Shown here in pieces: positions 24,678-59,386 of a stretch of DNA of 64,000 nucleotides. Made by a program: the position numbers and the translations under genes. The first letter of the stretch is position 1, and each line of letters opens with the position of its first letter. Location of the stretch: positions 5,536,001 to 5,600,000 of the forward strand of contig OY764216.1 of the NCBI GenBank assembly GCA_963668315.1. The letters run 5' to 3'. A model generated the notes under the pieces. That model worked only from the letters and a program-made list of their open reading frames with translations. It was not told where the DNA came from and ran no database searches. The DNA is from Spirochaetia bacterium (GTDB lineage Bacteria; Spirochaetota; Spirochaetia; DSM-2461).

Positions 24678-24872
24678 TTTGGCCGAAGGCCTTTCCTCAC
24701 CGTAGCCTGGGGCACCGCCCCAGGAATTGCCACAGTGCGACGTTTGGCCGAAGGCCCTATTCAACCCTCATGAGATGGGAGACGTGAATATGGCCGTTGG
24801 CCAAACGGATGGCTACGCCTGAATTCCTGGGGCGATGCCCCAGGCTACGGTGAACGTAGGCCTTCGGCCAAA
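24678..24872. repeat. 195-bp palindromic REPIN/MITE-like element
   Basis: About 50-bp inverted arms TTTGGCCGAAGGCC..CACCGTAGCCTGGGGCA.CGCCCCAGGAATT and its reverse complement, with inner TTTGGCC/GGCCAAA arms. Confidence 0.8.
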
Positions 24873-27503: not shown

Positions 27504-27556
27504 CAGGCTGAAGCCTGGACTCCAACAAGTAAGCAGGCTGAAGCCTGGACTCCAAC
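27504..27556. repeat. Two direct copies of 23-bp REP-like CAGGCTGAAGCCTGGACTCCAAC
   Basis: Copies at 27504 and 27534 (period 30); internal hairpin CAGGCT-GA-AGCCTG; related GGACTCCAAC arms at 44951-45003. Confidence 0.85.
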
Positions 27557-27571
27557 GAGGAGTATATCACC

Positions 27572-30500
27572 ATGTCGGAACACGGCGATCGCAAGAGTGT
27601 TGGGGAAACCAACGTCCAGCGGCTCCTGTCCGAGGCCTACCGCCCGGAGCAACCGGACTCGGCCTTTGCCGAACGGGTCACTCGTGCCATGCTGGCTGAG
27701 GCCGAGCGGCGTCAGAACACAACCACTGCCCCGCGAACACGGCTGGTCTGGCATGGGGCGGTGTGGGTGACGGCCGCAGTGCTGCTGATCGCCTTGGGCG
27801 CCGGGCTCGGGCATTACTTTTCTCGCCCTGAATTGCCTGGGGGCGACTCGCCCATTCGATTTGCCGAAGGAGGCACCGATGCGGCTCCGTCGCCGCACCT
27901 CGCTGCAAGTTGGCCGGTGGCGACTGCCCTGTCGCCGCGACCGCGTGCGGAAGCCCCGCCAACTCCCAAACTGGCCGTGGGCGATTCGGCTCGCACCGGC
28001 CCGACGGAACGGCGGAGGGTCGAACTCCCCGACGGTTCGGTTCTCTATCTCAATCGGGACACGAGCCTCACGCTAACTTCCTCACGCCACATTCAACTTG
28101 ACCAAGGCGAGATCTATCTGGAGGTAGCATCGCGGCACGAGGCCGACACGGAAGACGAGGCCAATCGCTTTGTGGTGATGACGGCGGACCGCGAGGTCGT
28201 GTCGCTGGGTACGAAATTCAACGTGCGAGCGGAAGGCCGCGGCACCTCGGTGGCCGTCACTCAGGGCAAGGTGCAAGTGAGCGGCGTCGACGGGCCGCTC
28301 CAGGCCGGCCAGCAGGTTCTGGAAACCGGCGCGGAGCCCGTCCCGATCGGCCAGGCCTTTCACCTGATCGACTGGACCCGCGATCTGGTCGCCGCTTCGC
28401 AGTCGCCCCTGGTCCCGGCCAGCAACTACGCCGGCGGCGCGTTGGTGGCCCGGCGGCCGGGAGGCGACGAGGCGAGCCTGAGCATGCGGCGCTACAAGGT
28501 CGACGTTCACATCGAAGACGGGTTTGCGAGAACCACGATCGATCAGACCTACTTCAACCATGAGTCGTGGCGGCTGGAGGGCACGTTCTTCTTTCCCCTG
28601 CCGCCCGATGCTTCTCTTTCGCGACTGGCCATGTACGTGGGTGGAAAGCTCATGGAAGGCGGCATGGCCGAACGGGAACACGCCCGGAAGACCTTCGAGT
28701 CGATTGTTCGCAAGCAGAAGGACCCGGCCCTGCTGGAGTGGATCGACGGCAGCACCTTCCGCATGCGGGTCTTCCCACTCGAACCGCGGCAGGAGAAGCG
28801 GATTGTTCTGAGCTACACCCAGCGGCTCGAGCGGCTCGGCGATCGCGTCGAGTACCGCTTTCCCGGCGGGCACAGCATGGCGAAGGTGGGCCAATGGTCG
28901 TGCCACGTCCGTGCCAAGGACCGCGAGGGCTGCCGCTGGGAGGCCGATTCGTACGACTTCCATGCCGGCCGCGAAGAGCAGGACCTTTTGCTCGATGCCA
29001 CGGCGGAAGACGTCAGCCCCGACCGAAACGTGGTCCTCCGATTCTGGGACCGAACCTCCGAGAACAAGCGGGCGGATGCCGGGCCGCAATTCGTCTCGGC
29101 CGAGCACGAGGGCCAGCGCTATCTTGCCTTGCGGTATCCCTTCCAGCCAGGCGGTGGCCGGAAGATGCGGCGCGATTGGGTGTTTTTGTATGAAACCTCG
29201 GCCGATCGCGACCCGGTGCTGGCCCGGGTCCAGGTCGACGTGATCAAAACCCTGCTCGAAAACGCCGAACGGGACGACACATTCACGATCCTAGCGGCCA
29301 GCAGCCGAATTCGCGCGATGTCCGAGGTCCCGCTTCCCGTTCGGCCCAAGAACGTGCGGCGGGCCATCGAATTTCTGGAGAAGTCTCAACTGGTCGGGGC
29401 CCTCGATCTCGAAAAGGCCTTCGGCGCCGCCGCGGCCGCGGCCCGGGATGTTGAGAATCCGTGTGTCGTTCACCTGGGCAGCGGCTACCCGCGACTGGGC
29501 GAAGAAGACCAGGTGGCGCTCGCTCGCCTGCTTCCGGAGAAGAGCACCTATGTGGGCGTGGCCGTGGGCAACCGCTGGAATCGCGCCCTGATGAAGCGTC
29601 TGGCCGGCGATTCGGGAGGATATCTGACGCAGATCAACCCGAACGAACCGGTCGCATGGCGGGCGATCGAACTGGCCTCGCGGTTGAACGCCCCGCGGCT
29701 GACGAACGTGCGAGTTGTCGACAACCGAGAGAAACTGCACTTTCTCAACATGAGCGACGTTGTGTGTGAGGGGGAAGAACTGCTGGCCGTCGCCCGCATG
29801 GATGCCGGTGCAAAGCTGCCCAAGTGGGTGGACGTGACAGGCCGGATGGACGGCGAACCCTACACGGAGCGAGTGCCTGTCGGCCAGGTTTCCGAAGGTG
29901 CGGAGTACCTGCCTCGCACCTGGTCGAAGCTCGAAATCGACCGGCTCGTGGCTGAAGACGCCCTCGCCCACCACGACGAGATCGTCAACCTGAGCATGGC
30001 CATGTACGTCATGTCGCCCTTCACGTCGCTGCTGGTGCTGGAGAACGACGCCATGTACGAGCAGTATCACGTGGATCGCGGTCGGAAGGACCATTGGGCC
30101 CTCTATCCATGCCCCGAGACGATCGAGGTCGTTCACGAGCCGCTTCCTTCTTCACCGCCTGCACCGCCCAAACCGGCTGTTGCCGGGCCGAGCGTGGAAG
30201 AGGTGCTGGCAACCATTCTGCTGCGTCATGGGAGATCCTGGTTGGACGTCGCGTCGATTGGTGGGGAGGGAGAACGGGGGAAGATCAACGCGAATACAGT
30301 CACGTGGGATATCCCGAACGCGTGGGAGTGGGGTTTCTGGGATGTCGATCATGACGGAGATGTGACGGTGGGGTTGAGCGGGCCGGGGATGTTCAGTGCG
30401 GACTTGGACATTCCCTTTACCGGCTACGAATGGCAGGATGTCCCGCAAGGCATCACGCTCCCGGGAACGGCGGATTCTGACGGTCTCTTTTCGGTGTTCG

Positions 30501-33500
30501 AGATTTCGGCCAGACGCTCCGCGCGGGTTTCCGACTGGGGCGAAGACGCCTTTCGTGGTTCCTTTTACTTGCCTAAGGTCTACCCAGTTGCCGACATGGT
30601 GATCCCCCTTCCGCAATCGGAGTTCGTGTTTGGAGTTCGCCCAGCGAATCGCTTCCATGAGCTTGTCGAACGAGAAACGTACAGAGTTGTCGAGCAAGCT
30701 CACCGGGCGTCGAAATCGGATCTGGAAGGCTCAATCTACAATCTCAAGCAACAGATCGAAACGGTCCGCCAGTTGACCGAGTTGGGCCCTCGGCATTCAG
30801 AACATCTGCTCGGCCTGCTCCAAACGGCGGTTGGCGAGGCGATGGGCAGGCAACAGGCCGAAGAGCGACGGCAACGGAGCCAATCGGAGAGGATCGCTGC
30901 TGCCCGCGATCGCGAGCAAAAACTCCTAGAAAGCCTCCAAAAGGCGGACAAGGTCCGCCAGCTCATGAACCGCTTCGATTCGCTTATGGCTGAAAGCAGG
31001 TATCGCTTCGCCGAAGAACCCGCGATCGAGATGGGGACGGATTCGGGCATAGGCGTACCGGCTGGAATTGCCCGCACGCTGCAAAGTCGTACGATCGAGG
31101 AGTTGAACCGCGAGATGGTGTTGCGGTTTGAACGTCAGAAAGGGGTTGTCGACCGGCTCTACATCACAGAACTCGCTCACGTGCCGTTTCCCGACGAGCC
31201 GCCAATCCTCTATCCGCCCGCCGAGGTTTGGAGGGAACTGACTGAGCGCCGCCGAGAAGGCTACCTTTCGATGGACTTGGCCAGTCCGTTTTCGTCCGAA
31301 CGGCAAATCCGGGCCGCGCTGGCCGAAAAGACGTTCGTTGATTTTGACGCGGAGCCGCTGCGCGGGGTGGTTCGATTCTGGGAGGATTATCACGATATCA
31401 GGATCAAGATCGCGGAGGATTGTCTGCGCCGAGCCGGGATTAGTCCGGATGCGAAGATAAGCAAGCATATCGAAGGGATTTCGCTGCGTTCCGCAATGCG
31501 TCTGGTCCTCGGCGACCTGGATTTGACGTATGTACAGGGCAACGGCGGCCTGATTATTATGCCCACACGGGACGCCTGGTGTTTTCAACACCGCGTGCGG
31601 CGTTCCTCGTTCGGTCCGCCGGCCATTCACAATCTCCTGGCCTACGCCCCGGGGGTGCAGACGACTGCGGCCGACGTGCTGGCTGTGGTCGATGCTGAGG
31701 CGGCCTTGGAAGACAAACCGACTGTCGGTCGAATTGATAAGCGGGCCCGGCAGCTCATCGAGAGTGCCCGACGTGACGGCTGGCAGCGGCTCGTCGGCGG
31801 TGAAAACGCAGAGCGCGAGGTGAGTGTCGTCTACGACGGCGAGGGCCATTTCCGGATCGACACCGAGACCGCCCTGGGCCTCAAGGAGACCATTTCGTGT
31901 GATGGCCAGAATCTCTGGCATCAGTATCCGGAACTCGGCGTGGGGACGCGGCGTCCCACGTGCCGCTTCTACGGAAACGCGGCCCGGGCTCTGGTTCCAT
32001 GGCTGCTGCCCAGTCCGGAAGAACTTGCACTCGGCGCGGACGTGACCGCAATCGACGACCGGACGGTGGCTATCACTGCCCACAGGGCAGGGGAAGACCA
32101 GGGGGCGGCCATGCAACTCCGCCTACTGTTTGCCAGCGATGGCCGCCTGTGCGAACGGCAACTGCTGGAAGCCGACTCGGAAAAGGTCCTGTGGCGTGAG
32201 ACCTACGATGCCGAGGGCACGGTGCGACTCGTGGACGGCGACGGAAAGGAGCGGTTCAGCAGGAGGATCGTCACCGAGCCGTGCGACGCCCCCGAACTGA
32301 CGCCCGATCCATCGCTCGTTGTTCTCGCCATGCCCTGGCGGACCCGCGAACACGTATTCGCTTCCCGCGGGCTTACGGACGACGGCGCCCGGAAAGAATG
32401 GAGCGACGAGGACGCCCTGGCTGTTCTGGCAGCCGAAACGGCCACGCGAGCCGAGTCGATCCTCTCCACGATCGGCTGGCACTTCTTCGCCAAGGGCGAC
32501 CGCCGTCCCGGCTTCTACACGCTCCTTCTGGCCTCCGGCGTCGATTGGAAAGCCCCGCCGGATGCTGAACCAAACGACGTTCGCCGGTTGTTCACGCCCC
32601 AGGAATCAACCGCCAAGGAACTGATCGTCGAATATGCCGAGGCCGTCAAGGATGTTGACCCCTTGGCCGGCACGGGGGTCATGGTAGGAATGAGACCGAT
32701 GGGGGGCATGGGGTCGATGACGGATAGCGGCGAGGACGTGAAGGCCGAAGCGTCTTCAGATGCCCGCCGCGAGAAAATCGGTCCGCTGAATGGCAGCGAA
32801 GACGGCTTCCTTCGTCGTCTTGCCGAGTTGCACGATCTCTGGATCAAGTGGCAGGCTTATGCTGCCAAGAAGACAACGGCCCAGGAACTTGCGGACCTCG
32901 AACGAGAAACGGTCCGCCTGCTCAAGCTGGATGCGAGAAGTCCCGTTATCATGAGTGCCCTTGCTGCCGTGAATCAGAACGCCGGCCGGCAATCACTGGT
33001 CCGCATCGGCGACGAACTGAAAGCCCCGTTTCGCGAGCACGGTCCGGCAATGTTCTCCTGGCGTCTGCTTCATGCTGAGGCTGTGGTCCAAACGGGAGAG
33101 GCTGCCCGCGGGCGTCAACTCTTCACGGCCCTGGTCGACGACATGGTCGCCGCCGGGGTGGTCCCACTGATTTCGAGCCGGATGAAGGAGACCTTCTTCC
33201 CCGACTTCGACTCCCGGAATGCCTGGCAAGGAGTCGTCGATCGGCTGACGGACGAAGCTTTGACAAACATGTCGGCAACGGCAGGTTTGCCCCTTGCGTT
33301 GCGGCTCTACCAACTGGACGCTCGCGACGAGGCCGAACGCATCTTTGCCAAGGCAACGACCTCGATCAGCCCGGACGATCCGGGGCCCGGAACCCTGGCC
33401 TGCGTGGCTTACCTGTGGCAAACGGACCAACGGCATCGGGCCGATCGAATGCTTACCGGGCTGCTGGCAGACGAGCGTTATCGAGGCATGCCGATCTTGT

Positions 33501-34066
33501 GGCGTCTGGCCAGCGAGTTTGCCCAACGACAAAACCTGCCCCGACGAGCGGCCCAGTGTCTGGATCGAGCCTTGGAAATCGAGTTTGCTCAACTTCCCGA
33601 CGAGATCGATCCATCGGCCATTGAATCGGACTATGCGAAGCTGCTCACCTTCTTCGACTGGGCGGCGGCGGACGGGCTGCGATCGGATCCGCAGGCTCAA
33701 GCCAGTGAGATCTCGCAGATCGTGGCGGCCGCCGACCGTTGGCGGAAATTGGACCCCGAGTCCCAGGTCGTTTACTGTCTGGCCGGCCGCACGTTGGCTC
33801 GTTGCGGAGCCCTGGATCTTGCCTGGGACTACGTCGTCTCGCCGCTCGCGAAGGAAGGAACCTCCATCGACTGGATGCAGGAGGGCGACGAATATCGCAA
33901 GAAAGGCCAGCCCGAACTGGCCGTCCGAGCCTACGACCTCGCGGCCGTCGCCGATCCGGCCAACGGCGAGCTCTGCTGGAAGCGCGCCCTGGCCCTCGCC
34001 GAAGCCGGGCGCCACGCGGAAATCCGGGAAATCCGGGAAATCCGGGGACACAATACGAGTTATTGA
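27572..34066 (+). CDS. Large anti-sigma-type protein: TM-FecR-VIT-vWA-secretin-like/STN-TPR; native C-terminus replaced by inserted element
   Basis: LPDGSVLYLN, SLGTKFNV (FecR); ARTTIDQTYFN, LEGTFFFPLP, DPALLEW (VIT); VMSPFTSLLVLE; TPRs; ends in element-derived EIREIREIRGHNTSY. Confidence 0.85.
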   Translation: MSEHGDRKSVGETNVQRLLSEAYRPEQPDSAFAERVTRAMLAEAERRQNTTTAPRTRLVWHGAVWVTAAVLLIALGAGLGHYFSRPELPGGDSPIRFAEGGTDAAPSPHLAASWPVATALSPRPRAEAPPTPKLAVGDSARTGPTERRRVELPDGSVLYLNRDTSLTLTSSRHIQLDQGEIYLEVASRHEADTEDEANRFVVMTADREVVSLGTKFNVRAEGRGTSVAVTQGKVQVSGVDGPLQAGQQVLETGAEPVPIGQAFHLIDWTRDLVAASQSPLVPASNYAGGALVARRPGGDEASLSMRRYKVDVHIEDGFARTTIDQTYFNHESWRLEGTFFFPLPPDASLSRLAMYVGGKLMEGGMAEREHARKTFESIVRKQKDPALLEWIDGSTFRMRVFPLEPRQEKRIVLSYTQRLERLGDRVEYRFPGGHSMAKVGQWSCHVRAKDREGCRWEADSYDFHAGREEQDLLLDATAEDVSPDRNVVLRFWDRTSENKRADAGPQFVSAEHEGQRYLALRYPFQPGGGRKMRRDWVFLYETSADRDPVLARVQVDVIKTLLENAERDDTFTILAASSRIRAMSEVPLPVRPKNVRRAIEFLEKSQLVGALDLEKAFGAAAAAARDVENPCVVHLGSGYPRLGEEDQVALARLLPEKSTYVGVAVGNRWNRALMKRLAGDSGGYLTQINPNEPVAWRAIELASRLNAPRLTNVRVVDNREKLHFLNMSDVVCEGEELLAVARMDAGAKLPKWVDVTGRMDGEPYTERVPVGQVSEGAEYLPRTWSKLEIDRLVAEDALAHHDEIVNLSMAMYVMSPFTSLLVLENDAMYEQYHVDRGRKDHWALYPCPETIEVVHEPLPSSPPAPPKPAVAGPSVEEVLATILLRHGRSWLDVASIGGEGERGKINANTVTWDIPNAWEWGFWDVDHDGDVTVGLSGPGMFSADLDIPFTGYEWQDVPQGITLPGTADSDGLFSVFEISARRSARVSDWGEDAFRGSFYLPKVYPVADMVIPLPQSEFVFGVRPANRFHELVERETYRVVEQAHRASKSDLEGSIYNLKQQIETVRQLTELGPRHSEHLLGLLQTAVGEAMGRQQAEERRQRSQSERIAAARDREQKLLESLQKADKVRQLMNRFDSLMAESRYRFAEEPAIEMGTDSGIGVPAGIARTLQSRTIEELNREMVLRFERQKGVVDRLYITELAHVPFPDEPPILYPPAEVWRELTERRREGYLSMDLASPFSSERQIRAALAEKTFVDFDAEPLRGVVRFWEDYHDIRIKIAEDCLRRAGISPDAKISKHIEGISLRSAMRLVLGDLDLTYVQGNGGLIIMPTRDAWCFQHRVRRSSFGPPAIHNLLAYAPGVQTTAADVLAVVDAEAALEDKPTVGRIDKRARQLIESARRDGWQRLVGGENAEREVSVVYDGEGHFRIDTETALGLKETISCDGQNLWHQYPELGVGTRRPTCRFYGNAARALVPWLLPSPEELALGADVTAIDDRTVAITAHRAGEDQGAAMQLRLLFASDGRLCERQLLEADSEKVLWRETYDAEGTVRLVDGDGKERFSRRIVTEPCDAPELTPDPSLVVLAMPWRTREHVFASRGLTDDGARKEWSDEDALAVLAAETATRAESILSTIGWHFFAKGDRRPGFYTLLLASGVDWKAPPDAEPNDVRRLFTPQESTAKELIVEYAEAVKDVDPLAGTGVMVGMRPMGGMGSMTDSGEDVKAEASSDARREKIGPLNGSEDGFLRRLAELHDLWIKWQAYAAKKTTAQELADLERETVRLLKLDARSPVIMSALAAVNQNAGRQSLVRIGDELKAPFREHGPAMFSWRLLHAEAVVQTGEAARGRQLFTALVDDMVAAGVVPLISSRMKETFFPDFDSRNAWQGVVDRLTDEALTNMSATAGLPLALRLYQLDARDEAERIFAKATTSISPDDPGPGTLACVAYLWQTDQRHRADRMLTGLLADERYRGMPILWRLASEFAQRQNLPRRAAQCLDRALEIEFAQLPDEIDPSAIESDYAKLLTFFDWAAADGLRSDPQAQASEISQIVAAADRWRKLDPESQVVYCLAGRTLARCGALDLAWDYVVSPLAKEGTSIDWMQEGDEYRKKGQPELAVRAYDLAAVADPANGELCWKRALALAEAGRHAEIREIREIRGHNTSY

Positions 34067-34219
34067 CGCACTGCAAACGCGTCGGTAGAGTTGCGTCCAC
34101 GGCGAGGTTTGCGCGAGTCGTTTGTCGAGTGACTTAAGCAACTCCTCGCCCGTGTGCGGAAACCGCAGAAAGGCGGTTGCCCACGAAAGCAATAAAACTC
34201 GTAATGTGTCCCCGGATTA
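34038..34219 (+). mobile_element. 182-bp non-autonomous element, copy 1 (deleted Y1/RAYT-like transposase derivative)
   Basis: Inverted ends AATCCGGGGACACAATACGAGTT / AACTCGTAATGTGTCCCCGGATT; homologous to 36703-36884. Confidence 0.8.
34063..34091 (+). promoter_or_regulatory. Sigma70-like promoter inside element copy 1
   Basis: TTGACG-N17-TAGAGT, conserved in copy 3 (36728-36756). Confidence 0.6.
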
Positions 34220-34227
34220 AGCCAGCA

Positions 34228-34632
34228 ATGATACGCGACTGCCTCATTCCCGCAATGAAACGCGAGTTCTCTGGTTGGGAGGTTGCGTTTGACGTGCCAC
34301 CGCAGCCGATTGCTGCTTTCGCAGCCGCTCAGCCTTCCGTCGGCAGAGTTCTTGTTTACGACGATGGCGATGAGGCGACGGTCTTGATCGAGAACGTGAC
34401 GCATGGTCACTTCAATTCTTATGACGAGAAGCTCTCGGATGCCCAGCGAGACGAGATGGTGACTGAGGATGTCATTGATTTTCTCAAGGCTCTATTCAGC
34501 GACCGGGTCCTACTGCATTGCAGCCCAGACAAGCACGGAGATGGATGGACGAGATTGGATTTGAAAGTCGGACCGATTGAGTTGTCACCGTCCTTTCAGT
34601 ATTTTCTATGGTCACGACCTTATCAGGCATGA
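34228..34632 (+). CDS. Hypothetical cargo protein (134 aa)
   Basis: ATG within 10 nt of the element end; globular-looking sequence; no family recognised. Confidence 0.65.
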   Translation: MIRDCLIPAMKREFSGWEVAFDVPPQPIAAFAAAQPSVGRVLVYDDGDEATVLIENVTHGHFNSYDEKLSDAQRDEMVTEDVIDFLKALFSDRVLLHCSPDKHGDGWTRLDLKVGPIELSPSFQYFLWSRPYQA

Positions 34633-34692
34633 CGAAGAGGGCTAACAAGACGCGGGTGGGACTGGCCCTGCACAACGGCGACCACCAACCGG

Positions 34693-34821
34693 CGTGTGCC
34701 ACTTGCTTGCCAAGCAGTGCTGTGCCATCGACGACGTGGACCGATCGGAATAGGAGTTGACGCATCGGGCGGAAGAGCTTGTTGAGGGAAACACCTTTCA
34801 ACAAGTGGACAGTGGCACACG
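34693..34821. repeat. Degenerate REP doublet
   Basis: CGTGTGCCACT ... AGTGGCACACG inverted ends; related to 61922-61948. Confidence 0.55.
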
Positions 34822-34935
34822 GGTCTGATATATCACGAGTTGGCGGGGTCACTCGCCCCGCTCGACTTGTGGGTGACGCACGCGTCTGATAGGGTAGACT
34901 TCGACACGTGTGGAAGCACCGGTGCCATGCTGGGC

Positions 34936-35804
34936 GTCCTGGCGGGCAGAAGGGAGGCATTGAGCGAAATAGGGACTTGGTTGGCGACGGAGCCCGATCC
35001 AAACGCGAAACGGGAAGACATGCGACCCATCGCCTGTCGGATGAAGCAGACATTCACTCCGGAGGAAAAGGAGCTCGCCCGACAGATTGTCGTGGCAATG
35101 CAGGGTGGTGAAGATGCCTCGATTGCGCAACAAGTCGGGGACAAGGGCGACGTTGACGTGGCGGAACCGGCCGGACACAAGACAGGCCTGGCGAACCTCA
35201 AAAAGATCCCCAGGCATTCCGGAGCTACCACGACACCTACCACAGCTTTCCCATGGCGGTTCAGATTGGGCCCAAGAACGTGCCTCACAGTTGGCGTGTG
35301 ACCCTTCTTCCTCAACTGGGATACAAGAAGTTGCACAGCGTCTACCGGCAGGACGAGCCCTGGGATAGTGAGCACAACAACACCGTTCTGACTCAAATGC
35401 CAGACGTCTATCGTAGCGAGGGCGACGAGGTAAATTCGACGAACTCGTCATACTTCGTCTTCACGGGCGAAGAATCGGTGTTTCCAAGCGATAGGGCCTG
35501 TTCCTATGCCAATATTATGGATGGTTCGGACAGCACTCTCCTGGTCGTGGAATCCAAACGCGATGTGCCGTGGACCAAGCCGGAAGATATTGCCTACGAC
35601 GCGAAGGACGCCCTGTCAACAATCGGGGGCTGGCATCCTGACGGATTCGATGCCGTCACATGCGCAGGAGACCTCCAGTTCTTCCCTCTCGATTTCGACA
35701 AGACGAGTTTGAAGTACTTGATTATGCGCAAGGACTGTCATTTGATTCAAATGCCGCAGCCCTACGTGCGGGAGAATGACGCCCGAAGCGGCAGAAGGCG
35801 GTGA
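34936..35804 (+). pseudogene. Frameshifted DUF1559-domain gene fragment
   Basis: NLKKI in one frame continues as QAFRSYHDTYHSFP...HSWRVTLLP...DEPWDSEHN...DGSDST...PWTKPED in another; shift near 35208; 5' limit uncertain. Confidence 0.75.
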
Positions 35805-35837
35805 GTCGTCCGCAGTGAGGCGAGGGTGGTGGACCTG

Positions 35838-35960
35838 CGTCGTTCGTCGAGCGACTGGAGCGACTTTTCGGCCGCGTGCTGAAACCGCAGCAAGGGGGAC
35901 GCCCAAGAAGGCAACATAACCCGTATTGTGTCCCTAGATTTGCTAGATTTGTCCCGGAGT
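35838..35960 (+). mobile_element. Element copy 2 (right half only)
   Basis: GTCGTTCGTCGAG...CTGAAACCGCAG...CAACATAACCCGTATTGTGTCCCTAGATTT followed by a CTAGATTTG duplication. Confidence 0.75.
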
Positions 35961-36024
35961 TAACAGCAGGTCAAGAAGCTCTCTTGCAGCGGTCTTCGCC
36001 GTGAGCGAAGTAGGAAGGATTCGT

Positions 36025-36549
36025 ATGATGCAGTTACGGCGACTTCGGTGGCTGGTTGCCTTATTGAGTGTCGTTTTTCTAACGATCCTCCTCGTCTTAT
36101 TCTTATTTGCACGACACCCCCGTCAAGTGCTGTTGTCAGATGTTCAACGGTCCAGAAAGATCATTGTCAACTGGCATCAGCTACAACTAAACGCTAATGG
36201 CGAGTGTCACGATGTTGCATTCGAGTTGAATACATCAGACAGAGCACGCTTCGTTCGGGAACTGACAGAGAACCTCGACTTGGACTATTTCAGACTACAG
36301 GCGACTATTGTTCCAATCATCGGAGTTTACCTAGTTGACGAAAATGACAAGTTCATAGGATACTATGTGATCCGACGTGCTCGGGGTGGTCGTGAATGTC
36401 CTTCGATGGTGTTATTGCGCCGCACAGCATCAAGAGGCCGTGCACTTACACAGGTCGAGATGGATGAACTCTACAATGACAACCTTCGCACAAAATGGCC
36501 TCGTGTTCTTCCCTGTGATTTCGATTACGTATTACCAGCCTCAGATTGA
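36025..36549 (+). CDS. AT-richer membrane-anchored hypothetical cargo protein
   Basis: N-terminal TM (WLVALLSVVFLTILLVLFLF); codon usage visibly unlike the flanking genes. Confidence 0.65.
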   Translation: MMQLRRLRWLVALLSVVFLTILLVLFLFARHPRQVLLSDVQRSRKIIVNWHQLQLNANGECHDVAFELNTSDRARFVRELTENLDLDYFRLQATIVPIIGVYLVDENDKFIGYYVIRRARGGRECPSMVLLRRTASRGRALTQVEMDELYNDNLRTKWPRVLPCDFDYVLPASD

Positions 36550-36702
36550 GCGGGGAGCGGGAGAAGAATAAAGGGGTCGGGGAAAGCGCCGGGATAAGCC
36601 GGACTGGACATCATCGCCGTGATCTTCGAGGCCGGCGTCTGGTACTACGACAACAACGGGGCGGCTGGTGGCACTGGGCAACCGGAGTGAGTACACTACA
36701 TC

Positions 36703-36884
36703 AAATCCTGGGACACAATACGAGTTGTTGACGCACTGCAAACGCTTCGGTAGAGTTGCGCCCACGGCAAGGTTCGCACGAGTCGTTCGTCGAGCAACTG
36801 GAACAGCTCCTCGCCCTTGTGCTGAAACCGCAGAAAGGCGGTCGCCCAAGGAGGCAACATAACCCGTAATGTGTTCCCGGATTT
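36703..36884 (+). mobile_element. 182-bp non-autonomous element, copy 3
   Basis: AAATCCTGGGACACAATACGAGTT ... AACCCGTAATGTGTTCCCGGATTT; colinear with copy 1. Confidence 0.8.
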
Positions 36885-37190
36885 GTCCATGTGTTCGACG
36901 GTCTCCCGAAGATTCTGAAGCACCCATTCTCGGTTCATATTGCGTTCCTCTTCCTCCTCGTCGAGCAGGAACTCGAAGAACTCCGCGTAGCGCGGCCAGG
37001 TGTCCGGCGTTCCCAACATCTTGCTGCTATCGTCGAGGCGAGGAACGTCATAGTTGTCACACCAAATGACGCCTTCGGACTCGACATCAAGGACAATCAG
37101 GCTTTCAGATGGCTGCGCCAACACGATGAAGCGATGCGGCAGGTCAATCGCTGATCGGAGACGCAACGTCTCGTTCACAATGTTCGCGGT
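36885..37190 (-). pseudogene. SMI1/KNR4 (SUKH)-like immunity gene remnant
   Basis: LRLRSAIDLPHRFIVL...LIVLD...WPRYAEFFEFLL resembles a SUKH C-terminal half; N-terminal half missing (in-frame TGA just upstream); 3' end runs into element copy 3. Confidence 0.55.
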
Positions 37191-37246
37191 CGGTCAGTGA
37201 CATCCGCCCTGTAGTGGCAGTGAGACGCACACCCTCTTGTGGCAAA

Positions 37247-37316
37247 GCCACCCCGACGATTTTCCGGCATTGTCAACCGAGATGGGAGGCCGGATGCGGA
37301 AAATCATCGGGGCTAC
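37247..37316. repeat. GTAG-type REP-like hairpin
   Basis: CCCCGACGATTTTCCG ... CGGAAAATCATCGGGG arms ending in CTAC. Confidence 0.6.
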
Positions 37317-37334
37317 CCGCTACCCGATTTTGTC

Positions 37335-40300
37335 CTACCTCATATCCGCCACAGCCGGCGGCTCCACCTCGCAGACAATGCGGAAGCCGACGTTGTAGAC
37401 CTTCTGGTAAGGCGGATAGGCAAGCCGGAAACTGGATGTGCAGCGCTCGGGGCGGTCGCGCCAGGAGCCGCCGCGGACGACCTTGGCGGCGGTTGGGGCG
37501 CCGGTGTCGTCGTCCGAAGGGTAGGGACGGTAGGGCGTGCGGGTCCACTCGGCCACGTTGCCGTGCATGTCGCATAGGCCCCAGGCATTGGGCTGATAGG
37601 TGCCCGGCCTGACCGAGAGGAGAGCGCCGTCGTCGAAGCGAGCATCGCGGGGGATCCAGTCGTCGTATTTCGACGGGTTCGTCAGGGGCGAGTCGACCGT
37701 GTAGGGATTGCTGGCGAAGAGGCGGATGGTGGCGTCGGCCATGTTGGCGTAGGTGGAAAAGTCAGTGTCGGCCGGACCGAAGCTGAAAGGCGCAGCGCTG
37801 CCGGCCCGGCAGGCGTATTCCCACTGGGATTCCGTCGGCAGTGAGACTGCGGCGCCGGTGGCCTCCGAAAGCCAGCGGCAGAAGGCGGCCGCCTGGTCGC
37901 AGGACACGCGTACGACGGGTTGCTCGGGCCCGTTCATGGGATAGCCGTGGATTCCGAACTGGTAGGCGTTCTTCGACTCCACGCGACTGTCGTGCTTGGA
38001 GTCAAAACAGGCGAACTGGGCGTTGGTGATTTCAAAGCGTCCCATCCAGAAGGGGCGATCCATGGCGACGACCCGCTGGGGGCGTTCGTCGGGCGAACCG
38101 TCGCGGCTTCCCATGACGAACCGGCCCGCAGGGATCAGGACCAGTTCCACGTCCAGACCGTCGGCCAGATGCAACGTGCGGGTCGTGGCCGGGCCGGCGG
38201 CGGCCTGGCGGCGCTGCGCTTCGGCGGCGTCGAAAGGCCAGCCTTCGCAGGACGGCGTGGCCGCAGGTGGAGCGGCGGGCGGCGGAAGGAGCGGTTCCAC
38301 GGGCGTGGAGGCTACTTGGGGAACGGCCTCGGGGTCGTCGTCGTAGCCGCCGTAGAGCCGCAGCAGTTCGCGGCGACGCTGGCGCTGGACGCCGGGATCG
38401 GCGATGTCTTCGCCCCACGTGCCGTGGTAGGGACAGTTCAAATCGATCCAGGTGACAAGCCGGTCCCAGGCCTCGTCGTCGAGCCGGACGCCGTGGTGGC
38501 CCTTCTTGAGCAGTTGAACGAGCTGGGTCGTGTCGGCGTGGAACTCCATCGGTTCCAGCATATGATAGTCGCTCTCGATTCCCGGTCGGCGAACATAGCG
38601 GGAGAGCTCGTAGTAGCCCACGGAGAACTTGCCGCCCCGTTTGCCTCCGTTGCCCGGCGTTACCTGACGCCAGTCGGTGATTTTCACGTCGCCCCGGAGA
38701 TTGGGCTCGGCGCCGCCTTCGCTGGCCGGACGGCCGTCGTGGCAGGCCACGCAATGGCGGTCGACCACGGGTTGGACCTCGCGGGGGTAGCTGAAGCCGC
38801 GCAGCGGCCCGTGCCAGGGCGTGATCTTGTCGGCCGGTCCGTTCAGGGCCAACGTGAGCAGCGCGGGCGGGGCGGTGTTCTGGGGTTCGTGGCAGCCGGC
38901 GCACTGAACGACCTCGCCGGGCATGGCCGTCATCCAACTCCGCATCAACTGCAGAGCCCTGCCGTCCTTGTCGAGGGGCTGGATGGAGATGGGCATGTTG
39001 GCCGGGACGCGGAACTTGGCCGAGCCGTCGGCGCGGACCGGGACTGTGCCCAGAACCCGTTTGATGTCCCACGGGCCGTCCATGCCGACCACGCCCAAGA
39101 GGCCGCCCATGTCCTGATAGGCAAAGTGGTAGGTGAGAAGCCGCAACTGCTTGACCGTTCCGCGAGGAATGCCCTTGAGCCCGTCGCCCACGTAAATGTC
39201 CGGCAGGTAGACCACGGCGTCCTTCTTGGCCAGATCCACCTTGTCGGCAATCGGCTGGGGCGGCTCGGTCGCCCGCAGCGGGATCGGTTCGAGCAAAGCA
39301 CACTTCGGATCGTCCTGCAGAAGAACGAAGTTGTCGAACGTGTCGACCAGGTAGATTCCCCAACCGGTATTGGGCGACGGCTTGCAGGAGACGAGGAAGT
39401 GCTTGTCGCTGAGCGGATAAGGGTGGAGGAACTTGGGCCAACTGTCGAGGGTCAGGCCGTCGCGGATGAGCATTTCGACCTTTTGGCCGTAGCCCGGAAT
39501 CCGCTGGATCGCCCCGGCATCCTCGCGGCGACCGGCGGCCGGATCGAACACAACCAGTTCGCCCATCCGCGGGTTGTCGTGGTGCCCGCCAATGACGGAG
39601 ACGACCTTGGTGGGATGGTTGGGGATGGGACGCGTGTAAAAGAACGAGTTCGGCCAGTAGGAGTTGCTCCCGTAGAACTCCATCTGGCCGGTGCCGTCGG
39701 GGTTCATATGGAAGAGGAGTCGCGTGTTGGAATGAGGCGTGTCGGTGTATTCCCAGCGGGAATAAAGAACACGACCGTTGTTCATCACGGTGGGGCACCA
39801 GTCGTGTTCCTGGTCGAAGCAAAGCTGGCGAATATTGTGGCCGTCGGCGTCCATCTGGTAGAGCGTGGCCACGTGGGAGTTGCCATAAACACAGGGCACG
39901 CCGATGAAACACGCCGTGGAGGTGAACACGATCCGTCCGTCGGGCAGGTAGCAGGCGTCGTAGCTATCCACGTCAGGCTGTTCGCCTGTGAGCTGCCGGA
40001 GTCCCTGCCCGTCGGCGCCGATCTCAAAAACCTGCCAGCGATCGTTCTCGCCCACCATCGAGAAGAGCATTCGCCGACCGTCGAAACTCAGGTCCACATC
40101 GCCCACGAAGCTGTCGCGCGACGGCGCGAAGAGCGTGCTCAGGCTTCCTTTGGACCGGACGGGAGAGAGAACGGCGATTTCGTCGTCAAATCCCTTCTTG
40201 GGCAGGCTGGAATTGCTCTGCCAATTGCGGGGCAGGCCCAGGGAAGGCGACTTGTTGGATCGTTTGACGAGGAGCAGGCGGTCGAAGTCGAGGAGCGGGT

Positions 40301-42136: not shown

Positions 42137-42502
42137 GCCCGGCTACACCGCTTCAGCCCGGCTGCTTTGGTCACGCTGTAGGGAGTCGTGACAGCTCCAA
42201 GAACCGTTTGATTTGCAGCCGGGCTTTTGGGGTCGACAGGGATTGAGCAAAGAGCCGGGCTAGTTTCGGAACTTCGGCGGCCAGGCTGCCTTATCTGAGG
42301 TGGGTGATTCAAGAGCCCGGCTACACCGGTTCAGCCCGGCTGCTTTGGTCACGCTGTAGGGAGTCGTGACAGTTCCAAGAACCGTTTGATTTGCAGCCGG
42401 GCTTTTGGGGTCGACAGGGATTGAGCGAAGAGCCGGGCTAGTTTCGGAACTTCAGCGCCCAAGCGGGCTGAACTGAGGTGGCCAGTTCAAGAGCCCGGCT
42501 AC
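42137..42502. repeat. Tandem duplication of a 178-bp structured unit (2 copies + 10 bp)
   Basis: GCCCGGCTAC starts at 42137, 42315 and 42493; units contain alternating AGCCCGGCT/AGCCGGGCT arms. Confidence 0.9.
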
Positions 42503-44819: not shown

Positions 44820-45021
44820 GGGTGGCACGCTCAGAGCCCAAGCGATGGGCGTGGTGATCTAAGCGTCCACGCCCATCGCTTCGCTCTGGGCGTGCCACCC
44901 ACCGCGGAAGGCAATGTTCTGAAACGTCTGGCTCTTAGGGCAGGCCATCTGTTGGAGTCCGGCCTTTGGGTTGTCTTCCACACGCTAAAGCGTGGACTCC
45001 AACGCTCTGAGCGTGCCACCC
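44820..45021. repeat. Nested cluster of REP-like palindromes
   Basis: GGGTGGCACGCTCAGAGC..GCTCTGGGCGTGCCACCC hairpin (44820-44900), GTTGGAGTCC..GGACTCCAAC (44951-45003), third arm 45004-45021. Confidence 0.8.
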
Positions 45022-52614: not shown

Positions 52615-53091
52615 ATGAATCGATCCCTATTGGCCGCCGTCGCCGTTCTTGCTTTTTCTGTGAACAGCGCAAACGCCCAGTCCTGGATCTTCCAGCCGGG
52701 AACGTACAGCAGAACCTCCGGACCGGCCGCTCTGCAGAATGCAGCCCCGGTGCAGTCTGCGACCGGCTCCCAATCCGTGGCGGGATCACTGTCCTCTCTC
52801 GGCTCTCAGACCGCGAACGGACCGAAAGCCTATGCTTCCTTCACGGAATCCCAGGCGGCCGCAGCGGCTACCATGCCCAAGCCTGCCTTCCAATGGGATC
52901 CCACGGGAATTCTCGGACGAGGCCAACGGTACGAGCAATGGAGTCATGAGGAAGCCATGGAAGCCAACCGGCTGGAGACCTATGCTCGGGGAGTGCGCGA
53001 TGCCGTGGGCATGCCTGTCTGGACCTGGAATCCAACCGCTTACCAGCCGCTTCCTCGGATCACCGCCCCGAAAGAAGACTTAGCGAATTAG
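52615..53091 (+). CDS. Exported hypothetical protein
   Basis: RBS GGAGG, signal peptide ending ANA; TAG stop overlaps the MITE left border. Confidence 0.65.
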   Translation: MNRSLLAAVAVLAFSVNSANAQSWIFQPGTYSRTSGPAALQNAAPVQSATGSQSVAGSLSSLGSQTANGPKAYASFTESQAAAAATMPKPAFQWDPTGILGRGQRYEQWSHEEAMEANRLETYARGVRDAVGMPVWTWNPTAYQPLPRITAPKEDLAN

Positions 53092-53252
53092 GCTCTGTTT
53101 CAAAACTCAAGGTGCCGGGCTTCGAGCGGCTGCACGAGCCATCCGCTGCGTTGTCCTGCATCGACATATGTCCAATATGCCTGCTTCGAACGCCTTGCGG
53201 ACTGGCTCGTTCGCTCGCTCTCGGGCCTGCGGCAGACTTTTCAAACAGAGCC
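53091..53252. mobile_element. 162-bp MITE, copy A
   Basis: Terminal inverted repeats GGCTCTGTTT / AAACAGAGCC flanked by TA on both sides; near-identical to 58737-58898. Confidence 0.88.
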
Positions 53253-53445
53253 TAGGACGCATCAGGAGTCCGACTCTTGAAATGGGGCGGCTCAAAGCGT
53301 TTACACGGCGGGTCGTGTATGGCATAACAGGAGGAAGCCTCGCGGCCTTGTTCATGACCGGAAACGCAAGCCCGGGGTGTTGGTGGGAACCAGGCGGCAA
53401 GACGCCGAGCGACACTCCTCTTTCACGGTTCGTGCGGTGTGAGCG

Positions 53446-58719: not shown

Positions 58720-58736
58720 CAGCCACCCACGAACTA

Positions 58737-58898
58737 GGCTCTGTTTCAAAACTCAAGGTGTCGGGCTTCGAGCGGCTGCACGAGCCATCCGCTGCGTTGT
58801 CCTGCATCGACATATGTCCAATATGCCTGCTTCGGACGCCTTGCGGACTGGCTCGTTCGCTCGCTCTCGGGCGTGCGGCAGACTTCTGAAACAGAGCC
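58737..58898. mobile_element. 162-bp MITE, copy B
   Basis: Same ends, TA flanks and orientation as copy A. Confidence 0.88.
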
Positions 58899-59386
58899 TA
58901 GGCCGTCAATTCGTAGACGGGTTCATCATCGGCTCGCGGCTCGTCCGCGAGCCGTTTCTCGTCTCGAACCCAGTCGTCGTGCGTGTAGATCACCACGCTC
59001 GTGTCCGTCTCCCGGATTTCCAACCGGTCGAGCCGAAAACCGAAGTCGGTGATCTCCGTGAACAGCTTGCAGGCCAGGTTTTCGACCGACGTGGGACCCT
59101 CGAACCGCTTCATCTTGAGACATTCGCCCGTCCGCTGGGTGTGATGGGCAAGCGTCTCATAGAGGGGATCGTTCACGTTGATCAGCAGGCCGTGGTCGTA
59201 CTCCTCCTTCAGAAAGGGCTCGATCACGTCGTCGAAGTCGCCGAAGAGGGTGGACACGGCGCCCTTGCGCTGCACCTCGAAGAAACACGAGATGCCGTAA
59301 CGATGCCCGTGGAGGTTGCGACACTTGTCGGCCAGTTCCTCGTTTCGATGGGCGGCGTAGAACTTGTAGTCTTTGCGAATGATCAT
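58898..59386 (-). CDS. queD: 6-carboxytetrahydropterin synthase (PTPS/QueD family)
   Basis: AAHR, CRNLHGH, YDH, TSVENLA, RET. Confidence 0.85.
   Translation of the reverse strand: MIIRKDYKFYAAHRNEELADKCRNLHGHRYGISCFFEVQRKGAVSTLFGDFDDVIEPFLKEEYDHGLLINVNDPLYETLAHHTQRTGECLKMKRFEGPTSVENLACKLFTEITDFGFRLDRLEIRETDTSVVIYTHDDWVRDEKRLADEPRADDEPVYELTA

Follow-up and report, generated by a model that had tools for sequence, protein, structure and literature searches.

TIRtrons, with their TIRYT transposases (Di Nocera et al., 2013, PMC3733652), correspond to TnpA-Y1 subclass 2.1 (Quentin et al., 2018, PMC6006769) and to RAYT group 1, the most insertion sequence (IS)-like of the RAYT groups (Bertels et al., 2017, PMC5581495). 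In the parts of these accounts considered here, a TIRtron is a Y1 HUH gene lying between terminal inverted repeats (TIRs) of the GGGGWSAS type, with TIRs that also occur as solo copies, dimers and clusters, and subclass 2.1 proteins are tabulated for ~15% of the species sampled (PMC6006769, Table 1). This article concerns a 182-bp repeat found in a 64,000-nucleotide stretch of DNA (contig OY764216.1, positions 5,536,001 to 5,600,000 of the forward strand; hereafter "the window"). By its sequence, it is a TIRtron with an internal deletion and no coding function; its copies lie in a 3.2-kb patch of intact and broken genes. The patch probably grew at a breakpoint by separate, imprecise end-joining events, through a TIRYT transposase encoded elsewhere and with the participation of other repeats. 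The element class is itself known and named; relative to the portions of the TIRtron reports compared, the novelty lies in a mini that keeps its promoter, in stuttered tips and in the truncation of genes at tips, and those portions describe neither cassette capture nor biochemistry. A literature search, with subscription papers mostly outside its scope, returned nothing on gene capture, minis or stutters in subclass 2.1, and the supplements and figures of Di Nocera and Quentin, outside the comparison, may list the same TIR family.

The repeat also resembles MITEs (miniature inverted-repeat transposable elements), as a non-autonomous internal-deletion derivative that retains both ends; it is a MITE in the sense that it is short, codes for nothing, has TIRs as its borders and derives from an autonomous element. 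However, its parent uses a single-strand Y1 enzyme, and no target-site duplication accompanies copy 1 or copy 3. As with composite MITE pairs such as TIME-COMPs, pairs could bracket cargo. Integrons and clusters of attC sites lacking integrases (CALINs) have co-oriented repeats between small, horizontally shared genes, with a promoter placed before a promoterless cassette gene. The locus shares with them its co-oriented repeats, a promoter before a promoterless gene and one cargo gene that is likely a former cassette, but the repeat has no attC fold, there is no fixed crossover, genes are cut, and the enzyme is of the HUH type rather than a tyrosine recombinase. With IS91/ISCR elements, as defined in the sections of PMC13181058 considered, it has in common a HUH enzyme, the lack of target duplication, the pairing of a fixed with a variable end, and the co-mobilisation of adjacent DNA. 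IS91 has distinct oriIS and terIS ends and no TIRs, whereas the present element has one inverted repeat at its two ends, each of which shows stutters; membership of IS91/ISCR was rejected for this reason. The nearest literature found on gene capture by subclass 2.1 is a preprint on prochlorosin clusters, in which full and C-terminal subclass 2.1 fragments lie among variable small genes and a diversifying role is proposed for TnpA-REP subclass 2.1 (bioRxiv 10.1101/2020.03.09.984088). There, however, no TIRs were found, and a later note by the authors sees no strong evidence for causation.

Three copies occur in the window, all in one orientation, as a first-pass annotation had noted (34038-34219, 36703-36884 and a partial copy). 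With their appended tip repeats ("stutters"), they are as follows.

34020..34037, plus strand: two 9-nt tandem stutters of the left tip of copy 1
34038..34219, plus strand: copy 1, a 182-bp mini-TIRtron (left TIR 34038-34061, promoter 34063-34091, former start codon, now ACG, 34099-34101, deletion joint ~34115-34122, right TIR 34196-34219)
35839..35951, plus strand: copy 2, right half only (transposase C-terminal codons and right TIR), without promoter
35943-35951, plus strand: tip stutter of copy 2, one 9-nt unit
36703..36884, plus strand: copy 3, a 182-bp mini-TIRtron with deletion, promoter and ACG as in copy 1

Copies 1 and 3 are 87% identical over 181 nt, with a single substitution in the core of each TIR of copy 3, while the partial copy 2 aligns at 35839-35942 with 78-84% identity. 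The three copies (78-87% alike) sit at one locus, in an assembly that covers 195 kb of the host genome, and the 5.62-Mb assembly yields no further match, even for a 20-nt end with up to three mismatches. The full copies have TIRs of ~24 nt and, as DNA, fold much better than shuffled sequences (z -8.3). An assignment to the REP (repetitive extragenic palindromic)/REPIN sequences of a RAYT REPtron, which have a GTAG-type foot and a short hairpin and flank the RAYT gene, was rejected, the ends being long TIRs of the GGGGWSAS type.

The parent is known from an exact search for the left end and -35 box in 185,579 genomes, which gave two loci (L003 and L004), each with a full element in which the same TIRs surround a Y1_Tnp gene of 219-222 aa. 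In L004 (5001-5746), from the Thermoguttaceae genome G062, the 746-bp element has the same TIRs and promoter and encodes a 222-aa Y1_Tnp protein; copies 1 and 3 each share 154 of their 182 bases with it across a single gap of 564 bp, and this deletion joint sits at a microhomology of 7 out of 8 nt. The 3' part of copy 1 is a remnant of the final ~29 transposase codons (tblastn match to residues 194-222, plus strand), and tblastn of the transposase against the whole assembly finds only the last codons of the three copies. The parent protein scores 55 bits against PF01797 (cut-off 23), and its motifs NHVH, WQ, YVELNP and WSS correspond to those given for subclass 2.1 (NHVH, W[EQ], YIELNP, SS) in Table 1 of PMC6006769, an assignment made by reading motifs against the published table. 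A HUH (Y1, RAYT-like) transposase acting in trans had been proposed from the window alone, and the full element bears out that the repeat belongs to such an enzyme, which would have to act in trans. An AlphaFold single-sequence model of the protein (predicted local distance difference test score 43) was not used. The ends, here GGGGACAC, fit the TIRtron motif GGGGWSAS in the form reported in the text of PMC3733652. Among 80 metagenome loci, 67 have this motif at the left end and 71 at the right, by a loose pattern that includes some mis-picks; statistics on metagenome relatives refer throughout to the best 80 of 283 relatives, plus the genome loci.

The window itself is planctomycete DNA in its entirety, lying on a 195-kb segment that is chimerically joined to another genome. 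The 5.62-Mb assembly has a GC content of ~52% throughout, save for its final 195 kb, and the tetranucleotide score of the contig switches at ~5,429,000. The joint (~5,428,900; ~8900 in locus L271) falls inside genes on either side, ~140 kb upstream: DNA to its left matches a genus-mate of the assembly (G001), and DNA to its right matches G062 (89%), with which the window is collinear at mostly 83-93% identity. This is a warning in its own right, with ~195 kb of a reference genome coming from a different phylum-level lineage. It also changes the weight of several negative results. That the window holds no transposase, as previously remarked, is correct, but since the assembly has just ~195 kb of planctomycete host this says little, and a Y1_Tnp profile search of the assembly, which found none, is equally uninformative given the chimera. 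Among the listed relatives of the assembly, which are kin of the other organism, the element is absent (0 of 60), and close transposase homologs are likewise absent (0 of 400 at E<=1e-30). In the family of G062, by contrast, the end pattern is found in 50 of 251 genomes, with no match for the reversed control among the matches listed.

The patch sequence is well supported. Short-read contigs of run X1 equal the window over 32500-36143 and 36504-38500 with zero differences, matching letter for letter at the inner and outer joints of all three copies, and runs X3 and X4 agree wherever listed; these contigs come from two samples of one study, one of them possibly the source of the assembly. A joint 34072-35843 in X1 and X3, with the sequence between not resolved, is best taken as another copy of the element. 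No contig joint indicates excision between copies, in short-read contigs where rare circles are invisible.

What carries the case for end-specific joining is the behaviour of the element ends. Left and right tips of one element are identical in 39, 27, 20 and 12 of 43 cases at positions -5, -6, -7 and -8, the identity thus reaching -5 or -6 from the GGGG run and falling to background level by -8. Comparison of the two ends thereby shows the element tip to lie 5-6 nt from the GGGGACAC core, on its outer side. Of 127 distinct ends, 44 have a further occurrence of the tip hexamer no more than 45 nt beyond the element, whereas 200 shuffles give a mean of 1.0 and a maximum of 5. Such stutters start at the tip or up to 5 nt beyond it and end 0-21 nt inside the TIR, and longer repeat units of 23-168 nt show the same geometry. 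Stutters and 5-6-nt tips together suggest independent nicking and rejoining of the individual ends. Six of the 80 metagenome loci (L094, L117, L119, L121, L134, L142) have one and the same foreign end in place of the tip, immediately ahead of the GGGG run, and in five of them a TTGAC box lies farther outward; this is possibly an IS targeting TIRtron ends. An IS4-family element is inserted in the right TIR of one 228-bp mini of G062 (L004 797-2285, contig C7). G062 has two such minis, whose deletion differs from that of the window copies, while relatives show head-to-head end pairs and minis of ~55, ~75 and ~367 bp; the minis of ~55, 75, 228 and 367 bp in relatives are independent derivatives.

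The promoter sequence TTGACG-17-TAGAGT, already recognised in the first pass, is present in both full copies (34063-34091 and 36728-36756), and a TTGAC-like box is found at 42 of 43 left ends of related elements and at none of their 43 right ends. Among 62 distinct left ends, the hexamer 17 nt further on has T, A and T at its positions 1, 2 and 6 in 58, 60 and 61 cases, and an ATG follows 35 nt from the -35 box in 56. From this pattern, the promoter belongs to the transposase itself. The ATG spacing puts the start codon at the expected transcription start, so that the transposase transcript is probably leaderless. In the minis of the window and in both G062 minis, the former start codon is ACG. 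No plus-strand terminator was found in the patch, which makes read-through out of the right end plausible. The promoter had been said to point into the next piece: this applies to copy 1, but the piece after copy 3 is an antisense remnant, and copy 2 retains neither its left half nor the promoter.

The features of the patch and its edges, other than the element copies, are these.

27572..34066, plus strand: FecR-VIT-TPR host gene (Pfam FecR, VIT), cut at ~34021 by copy 1
34217..34646, plus strand: likely former integron cassette (R'-like start 34217-34222, R''-like box 34640-34646, rest of attC missing)
34228-34632, plus strand: intact 134-aa gene within the likely ex-cassette
34646..34859, strand not assigned: REP-type palindromic repeat of another HUH family (73-82% matches in G062)
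35205..35804, plus strand: frameshifted DUF1559 fragment (Pfam PF07596, E 5e-7; frames differ at ~35250)
36025..36549, plus strand: intact orphan gene of 174 aa (47% GC), its product having a hydrophobic stretch at the N-terminus
36566..36699, plus strand: 43-nt repeat (36566-36608), 54-nt orphan fragment and 37-nt repeat (36663-36699)
36885..37178, minus strand: C-terminal half of a SUKH/SMI1-KNR4 gene, without its own stop, running into the right tip of copy 3
37233..37320, strand not assigned: 88-nt palindromic repeat with many copies in G062

At the left edge, alignment with G062 stops at 34021, while the FecR-VIT ortholog of G062 extends 31 codons beyond, and orthologs in two further genomes (G909, G942) likewise retain ~30 or more extra codons. 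In the window, the final codons and the stop are now supplied by the element; the lost 3' end is absent from the 195-kb planctomycete segment of the assembly. The joint has 2-4 nt of microhomology, and G062 has the flanks of the island at a distance of 477 kb and in inverted orientation (C2:1058584 and C2:1535587), so that the left tip of copy 1 reads as a rearrangement breakpoint, not as a clean insertion. Nor does the G062 site show the target-site duplication and clean empty site of a typical MITE: there is the loss of the FecR-VIT 3' end in the window and a break of synteny, without duplication.

At its other side, copy 1 meets what is likely a gene of integron-cassette origin, to judge from its borders. 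The final two T's of the right tip overlap a TTRRRY-like start 9 nt ahead of the 134-aa gene, and an R''-like box lies 7 nt past its stop. The family has 98 matches including its own protein, with relatives 44-87% identical and named ones spanning several phyla. Among the 11 homolog loci examined, three of them identical, L194 holds a complete cassette with attC and an equally arranged start, one more overlaps an attC and nine show neither; these homologs are only 30-48% identical. The protein has no match in viral contigs, plasmids, Pfam or NCBIfam, no meaningful PHROG, and only unnamed clusters in the Atlas. A short-motif search for cassette ends stayed at chance level (8 matches in G062 vs 25 for the control), and a second one, with 21 viral loci matched, was not used. 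A simple detector, which finds two attC sites in locus L228, found no complete attC in 33901-37400. The ATG of the TIR of copy 1 is in frame with the 134-aa gene, and the promoter of copy 1 is predicted to transcribe it.

The remaining pieces are as previously named (the 134-aa open reading frame, the DUF1559 fragment, the membrane-type 174-aa gene at 47% GC and the SUKH-like remnant). They had been called compositionally foreign, and the GC content of the patch is indeed lower than that of the flanking genes (0.47-0.57 vs 0.63-0.65), but the DUF1559 piece is not clearly foreign, having a host-type paralog in G062 with 67% DNA identity. The 174-aa protein has eight matches including its own, and none of four that were scanned carries a Pfam family; neither this gene nor the 134-aa gene was found in G062. 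The same samples contain another copy of the 174-aa gene, which has diverged slightly. The segment translated as GLDII... is present, although its first three codons belong to the separate 43-nt repeat. This repeat and the 37-nt one are multi-copy in G062 and adjoin other flanks in the same samples; the segment that follows the 43-nt repeat in G062 and in the source samples (L092, L093) is conserved, and we take it to resemble the 5' end of a group II intron. The REP-type repeat flanks a RAYT-like Y1 gene on both sides in G062 (C9:635829-636041). The SUKH remnant aligns with the C-terminal half of ~150-aa proteins, and 11 of 12 scanned relatives match SUKH_5 or SMI1_KNR4 (E<=0.001); a word search gave no longer relatives. 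Past the end of the homologs, the frame continues from an ATG for ~20 codons to the tip of copy 3 (36885-36940, minus strand), possibly the beginning of another truncated gene.

HUH enzymes work by 5'-phosphotyrosine chemistry and stay bound to the 5' end. On the reading given at the outset, the TIRYT would nick one strand just outside either inverted repeat and keep hold of the 5' end of the element, and we infer that this fixed tip would be joined to a variable 3' end. Nicking, short extension and rejoining would give stutters and duplicated half-elements; joining at distant DNA would give deletions, inversions and the pick-up of the DNA at the other joint, as in one-ended transposition of IS91. 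Copy 1 would have landed in this way on the start of an integron cassette, and its inward promoter would read through a 130-nt untranslated stub into the promoterless 134-aa gene, capture being a by-product and not part of an ordered cassette cycle. Several points weigh against this account. Nick position and polarity are deduced, the literature found containing no TIRYT assay, and the duplicated stretch in stutters extends 6-11 nt outside the core rather than by one fixed value. The transposase of the host itself was not seen, only other left ends leading into an ATG in the same samples. A single comparison genome has both flanks (84-92% identity), and either genome may carry the inversion. 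The right edge of the island is not at a tip, synteny with G062 resuming at 37216, and expression of the 134-aa gene is a prediction only.

Could the repeat instead be a dedicated, integron-like device for capturing and expressing genes, as the first-pass annotation had it? The TIRYT would then work in a single direction, each added unit consisting of a gene and an element end, with the minis as recombination sites and promoters, in the roles of attC/attI and Pc in integrons. All three window copies are co-oriented, and at 13 related loci so are 14 out of 16 transposase pieces that adjoin one another; these loci are not independent, as two come from one genome and two are tandem duplications. 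In related loci (L104, L237, L238, L243, L244), full, half and mini copies of one orientation lie between fragments of large surface or RHS genes and small orphan genes, the cargo was not found in G062, copy 1 joins a cassette start with its promoter intact and its ATG silenced, as in the G062 minis, and the copies are divergent enough to have each arrived with different DNA. Yet co-orientation is also expected from local re-insertion or from lagging-strand targeting, known for Y1 enzymes in the sections of PMC6006769 covered. In place of whole genes at one fixed crossover, two of the five pieces are intact genes and three are fragments, and tips cut through genes. The copies do punctuate the patch, as stated at first, but so do at least four other repeat families common to G062, on which the joints 34646, 36566, 36609, 36663 and 37216 fall; the sequence shared with the second 174-aa gene copy begins only at 35993, 42 nt past the stutter of copy 2 and not at its tip. 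Cargo was expected to vary between relatives with junctions at element ends: the cargo is indeed absent from the 84-92% relative and one junction (copy 1, left) is exactly on a tip, but many joints are at other repeats. Targeting of attC by tips was rejected: with a simple detector, one tip of 160 has an attC-like site at a distance of up to 1.5 kb, and 6 tips have a cassette-start motif where 7.8 would be expected. Selection for fusions in frame with the right-TIR ATG was rejected too, the frame being open in 8 of 15 cases against 5.0 expected, which is not significant. The promoter, moreover, is the transposase's own. A platform that expresses each piece from a fixed crossover is not supported, and a dedicated capture device in the wider sense is unlikely; on analysis, the patch appears to resemble one-ended HUH transposition more than an integron. 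Equally doubtful is the bolder idea that TIRYTs run a second, integrase-free capture system, in which promoter-bearing, start-silenced minis, kept as portable modules of end and promoter, collect and switch on promoterless genes, cassettes included, by single-strand nick-and-join at their tips; immunity, toxin-tail and orphan genes would in this way come to form arrays of one orientation, in planctomycetes and in other groups.

The opposite view takes the minis as passive, MITE-like insertions in a disordered, repeat-rich breakpoint, whose cargo came by other routes. Both matching sites of G062 already have REP, 37-nt-like and 88-nt repeats without the element, G062 has 21 Y1_Tnp matches of several kinds, and most of its matches to the element are scattered solo ends or halves. 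However, host synteny ends exactly at the left tip of copy 1, the FecR-VIT 3' end does not follow the element, the right tip overlaps the first bases of the cassette, and the excess of stutters speaks for an end-specific activity. Passive accumulation looks quite improbable, and the same low standing attaches to the routes it would need, namely an integron integrase at a secondary site, RAYT/REP activity, or homologous recombination between repeats; as to the first, no integron integrase scores above cut-off in G062, nor in G1102 or G830. An assembly artefact or a structured RNA family is very remote indeed: the contig is chimeric upstream and the element folds strongly, but the short-read contigs reproduce the region letter for letter, Rfam gives one chance match only, the TIRs account for the fold, and the predicted transcript folds well in copy 1 only (z -3.0, -1.2, -0.4).

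The locus thus offers good evidence of end-specific joining and one plausible donation of a promoter to a former cassette. How does a single-strand HUH enzyme use inverted ends? The locus and its relatives yield concrete predictions, namely a nick 5-6 nt outside GGGGACAC, the joining of a fixed 5' tip to variable 3' ends, and a leaderless transposase transcript, and the 182-bp substrate is short enough for synthesis. If such ends do carry and express their neighbours, environmental bacteria would have a gene-shuffling route that escapes annotation tools for IS elements and integrons.

Some further observations concern related loci and the rest of the assembly. At L237, L238 and L239 (G830) and L104, co-oriented copies interleave with RHS-like and leucine-rich-repeat-like genes, and in G830 reading frames of 242-575 codons lead from the ATG of right ends into fragments of genes downstream. 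A second TIR-bounded MITE, of 168 bp, is absent from both orthologous G062 sites and has three copies, 97-100% alike, in the 195-kb segment (window 53089-53256 and 58735-58901; contig 5504852-5505018). The non-planctomycete part of the assembly encodes an integron integrase above the family cut-off (contig 3134160-3135089, L253). Elsewhere in the window there are a 178-bp tandem duplication (92%) at 42137-42492, an inverted repeat with 51-bp arms at 24678-24872, and REP-like 26-mers at 27504-27559 and 44981-45006.

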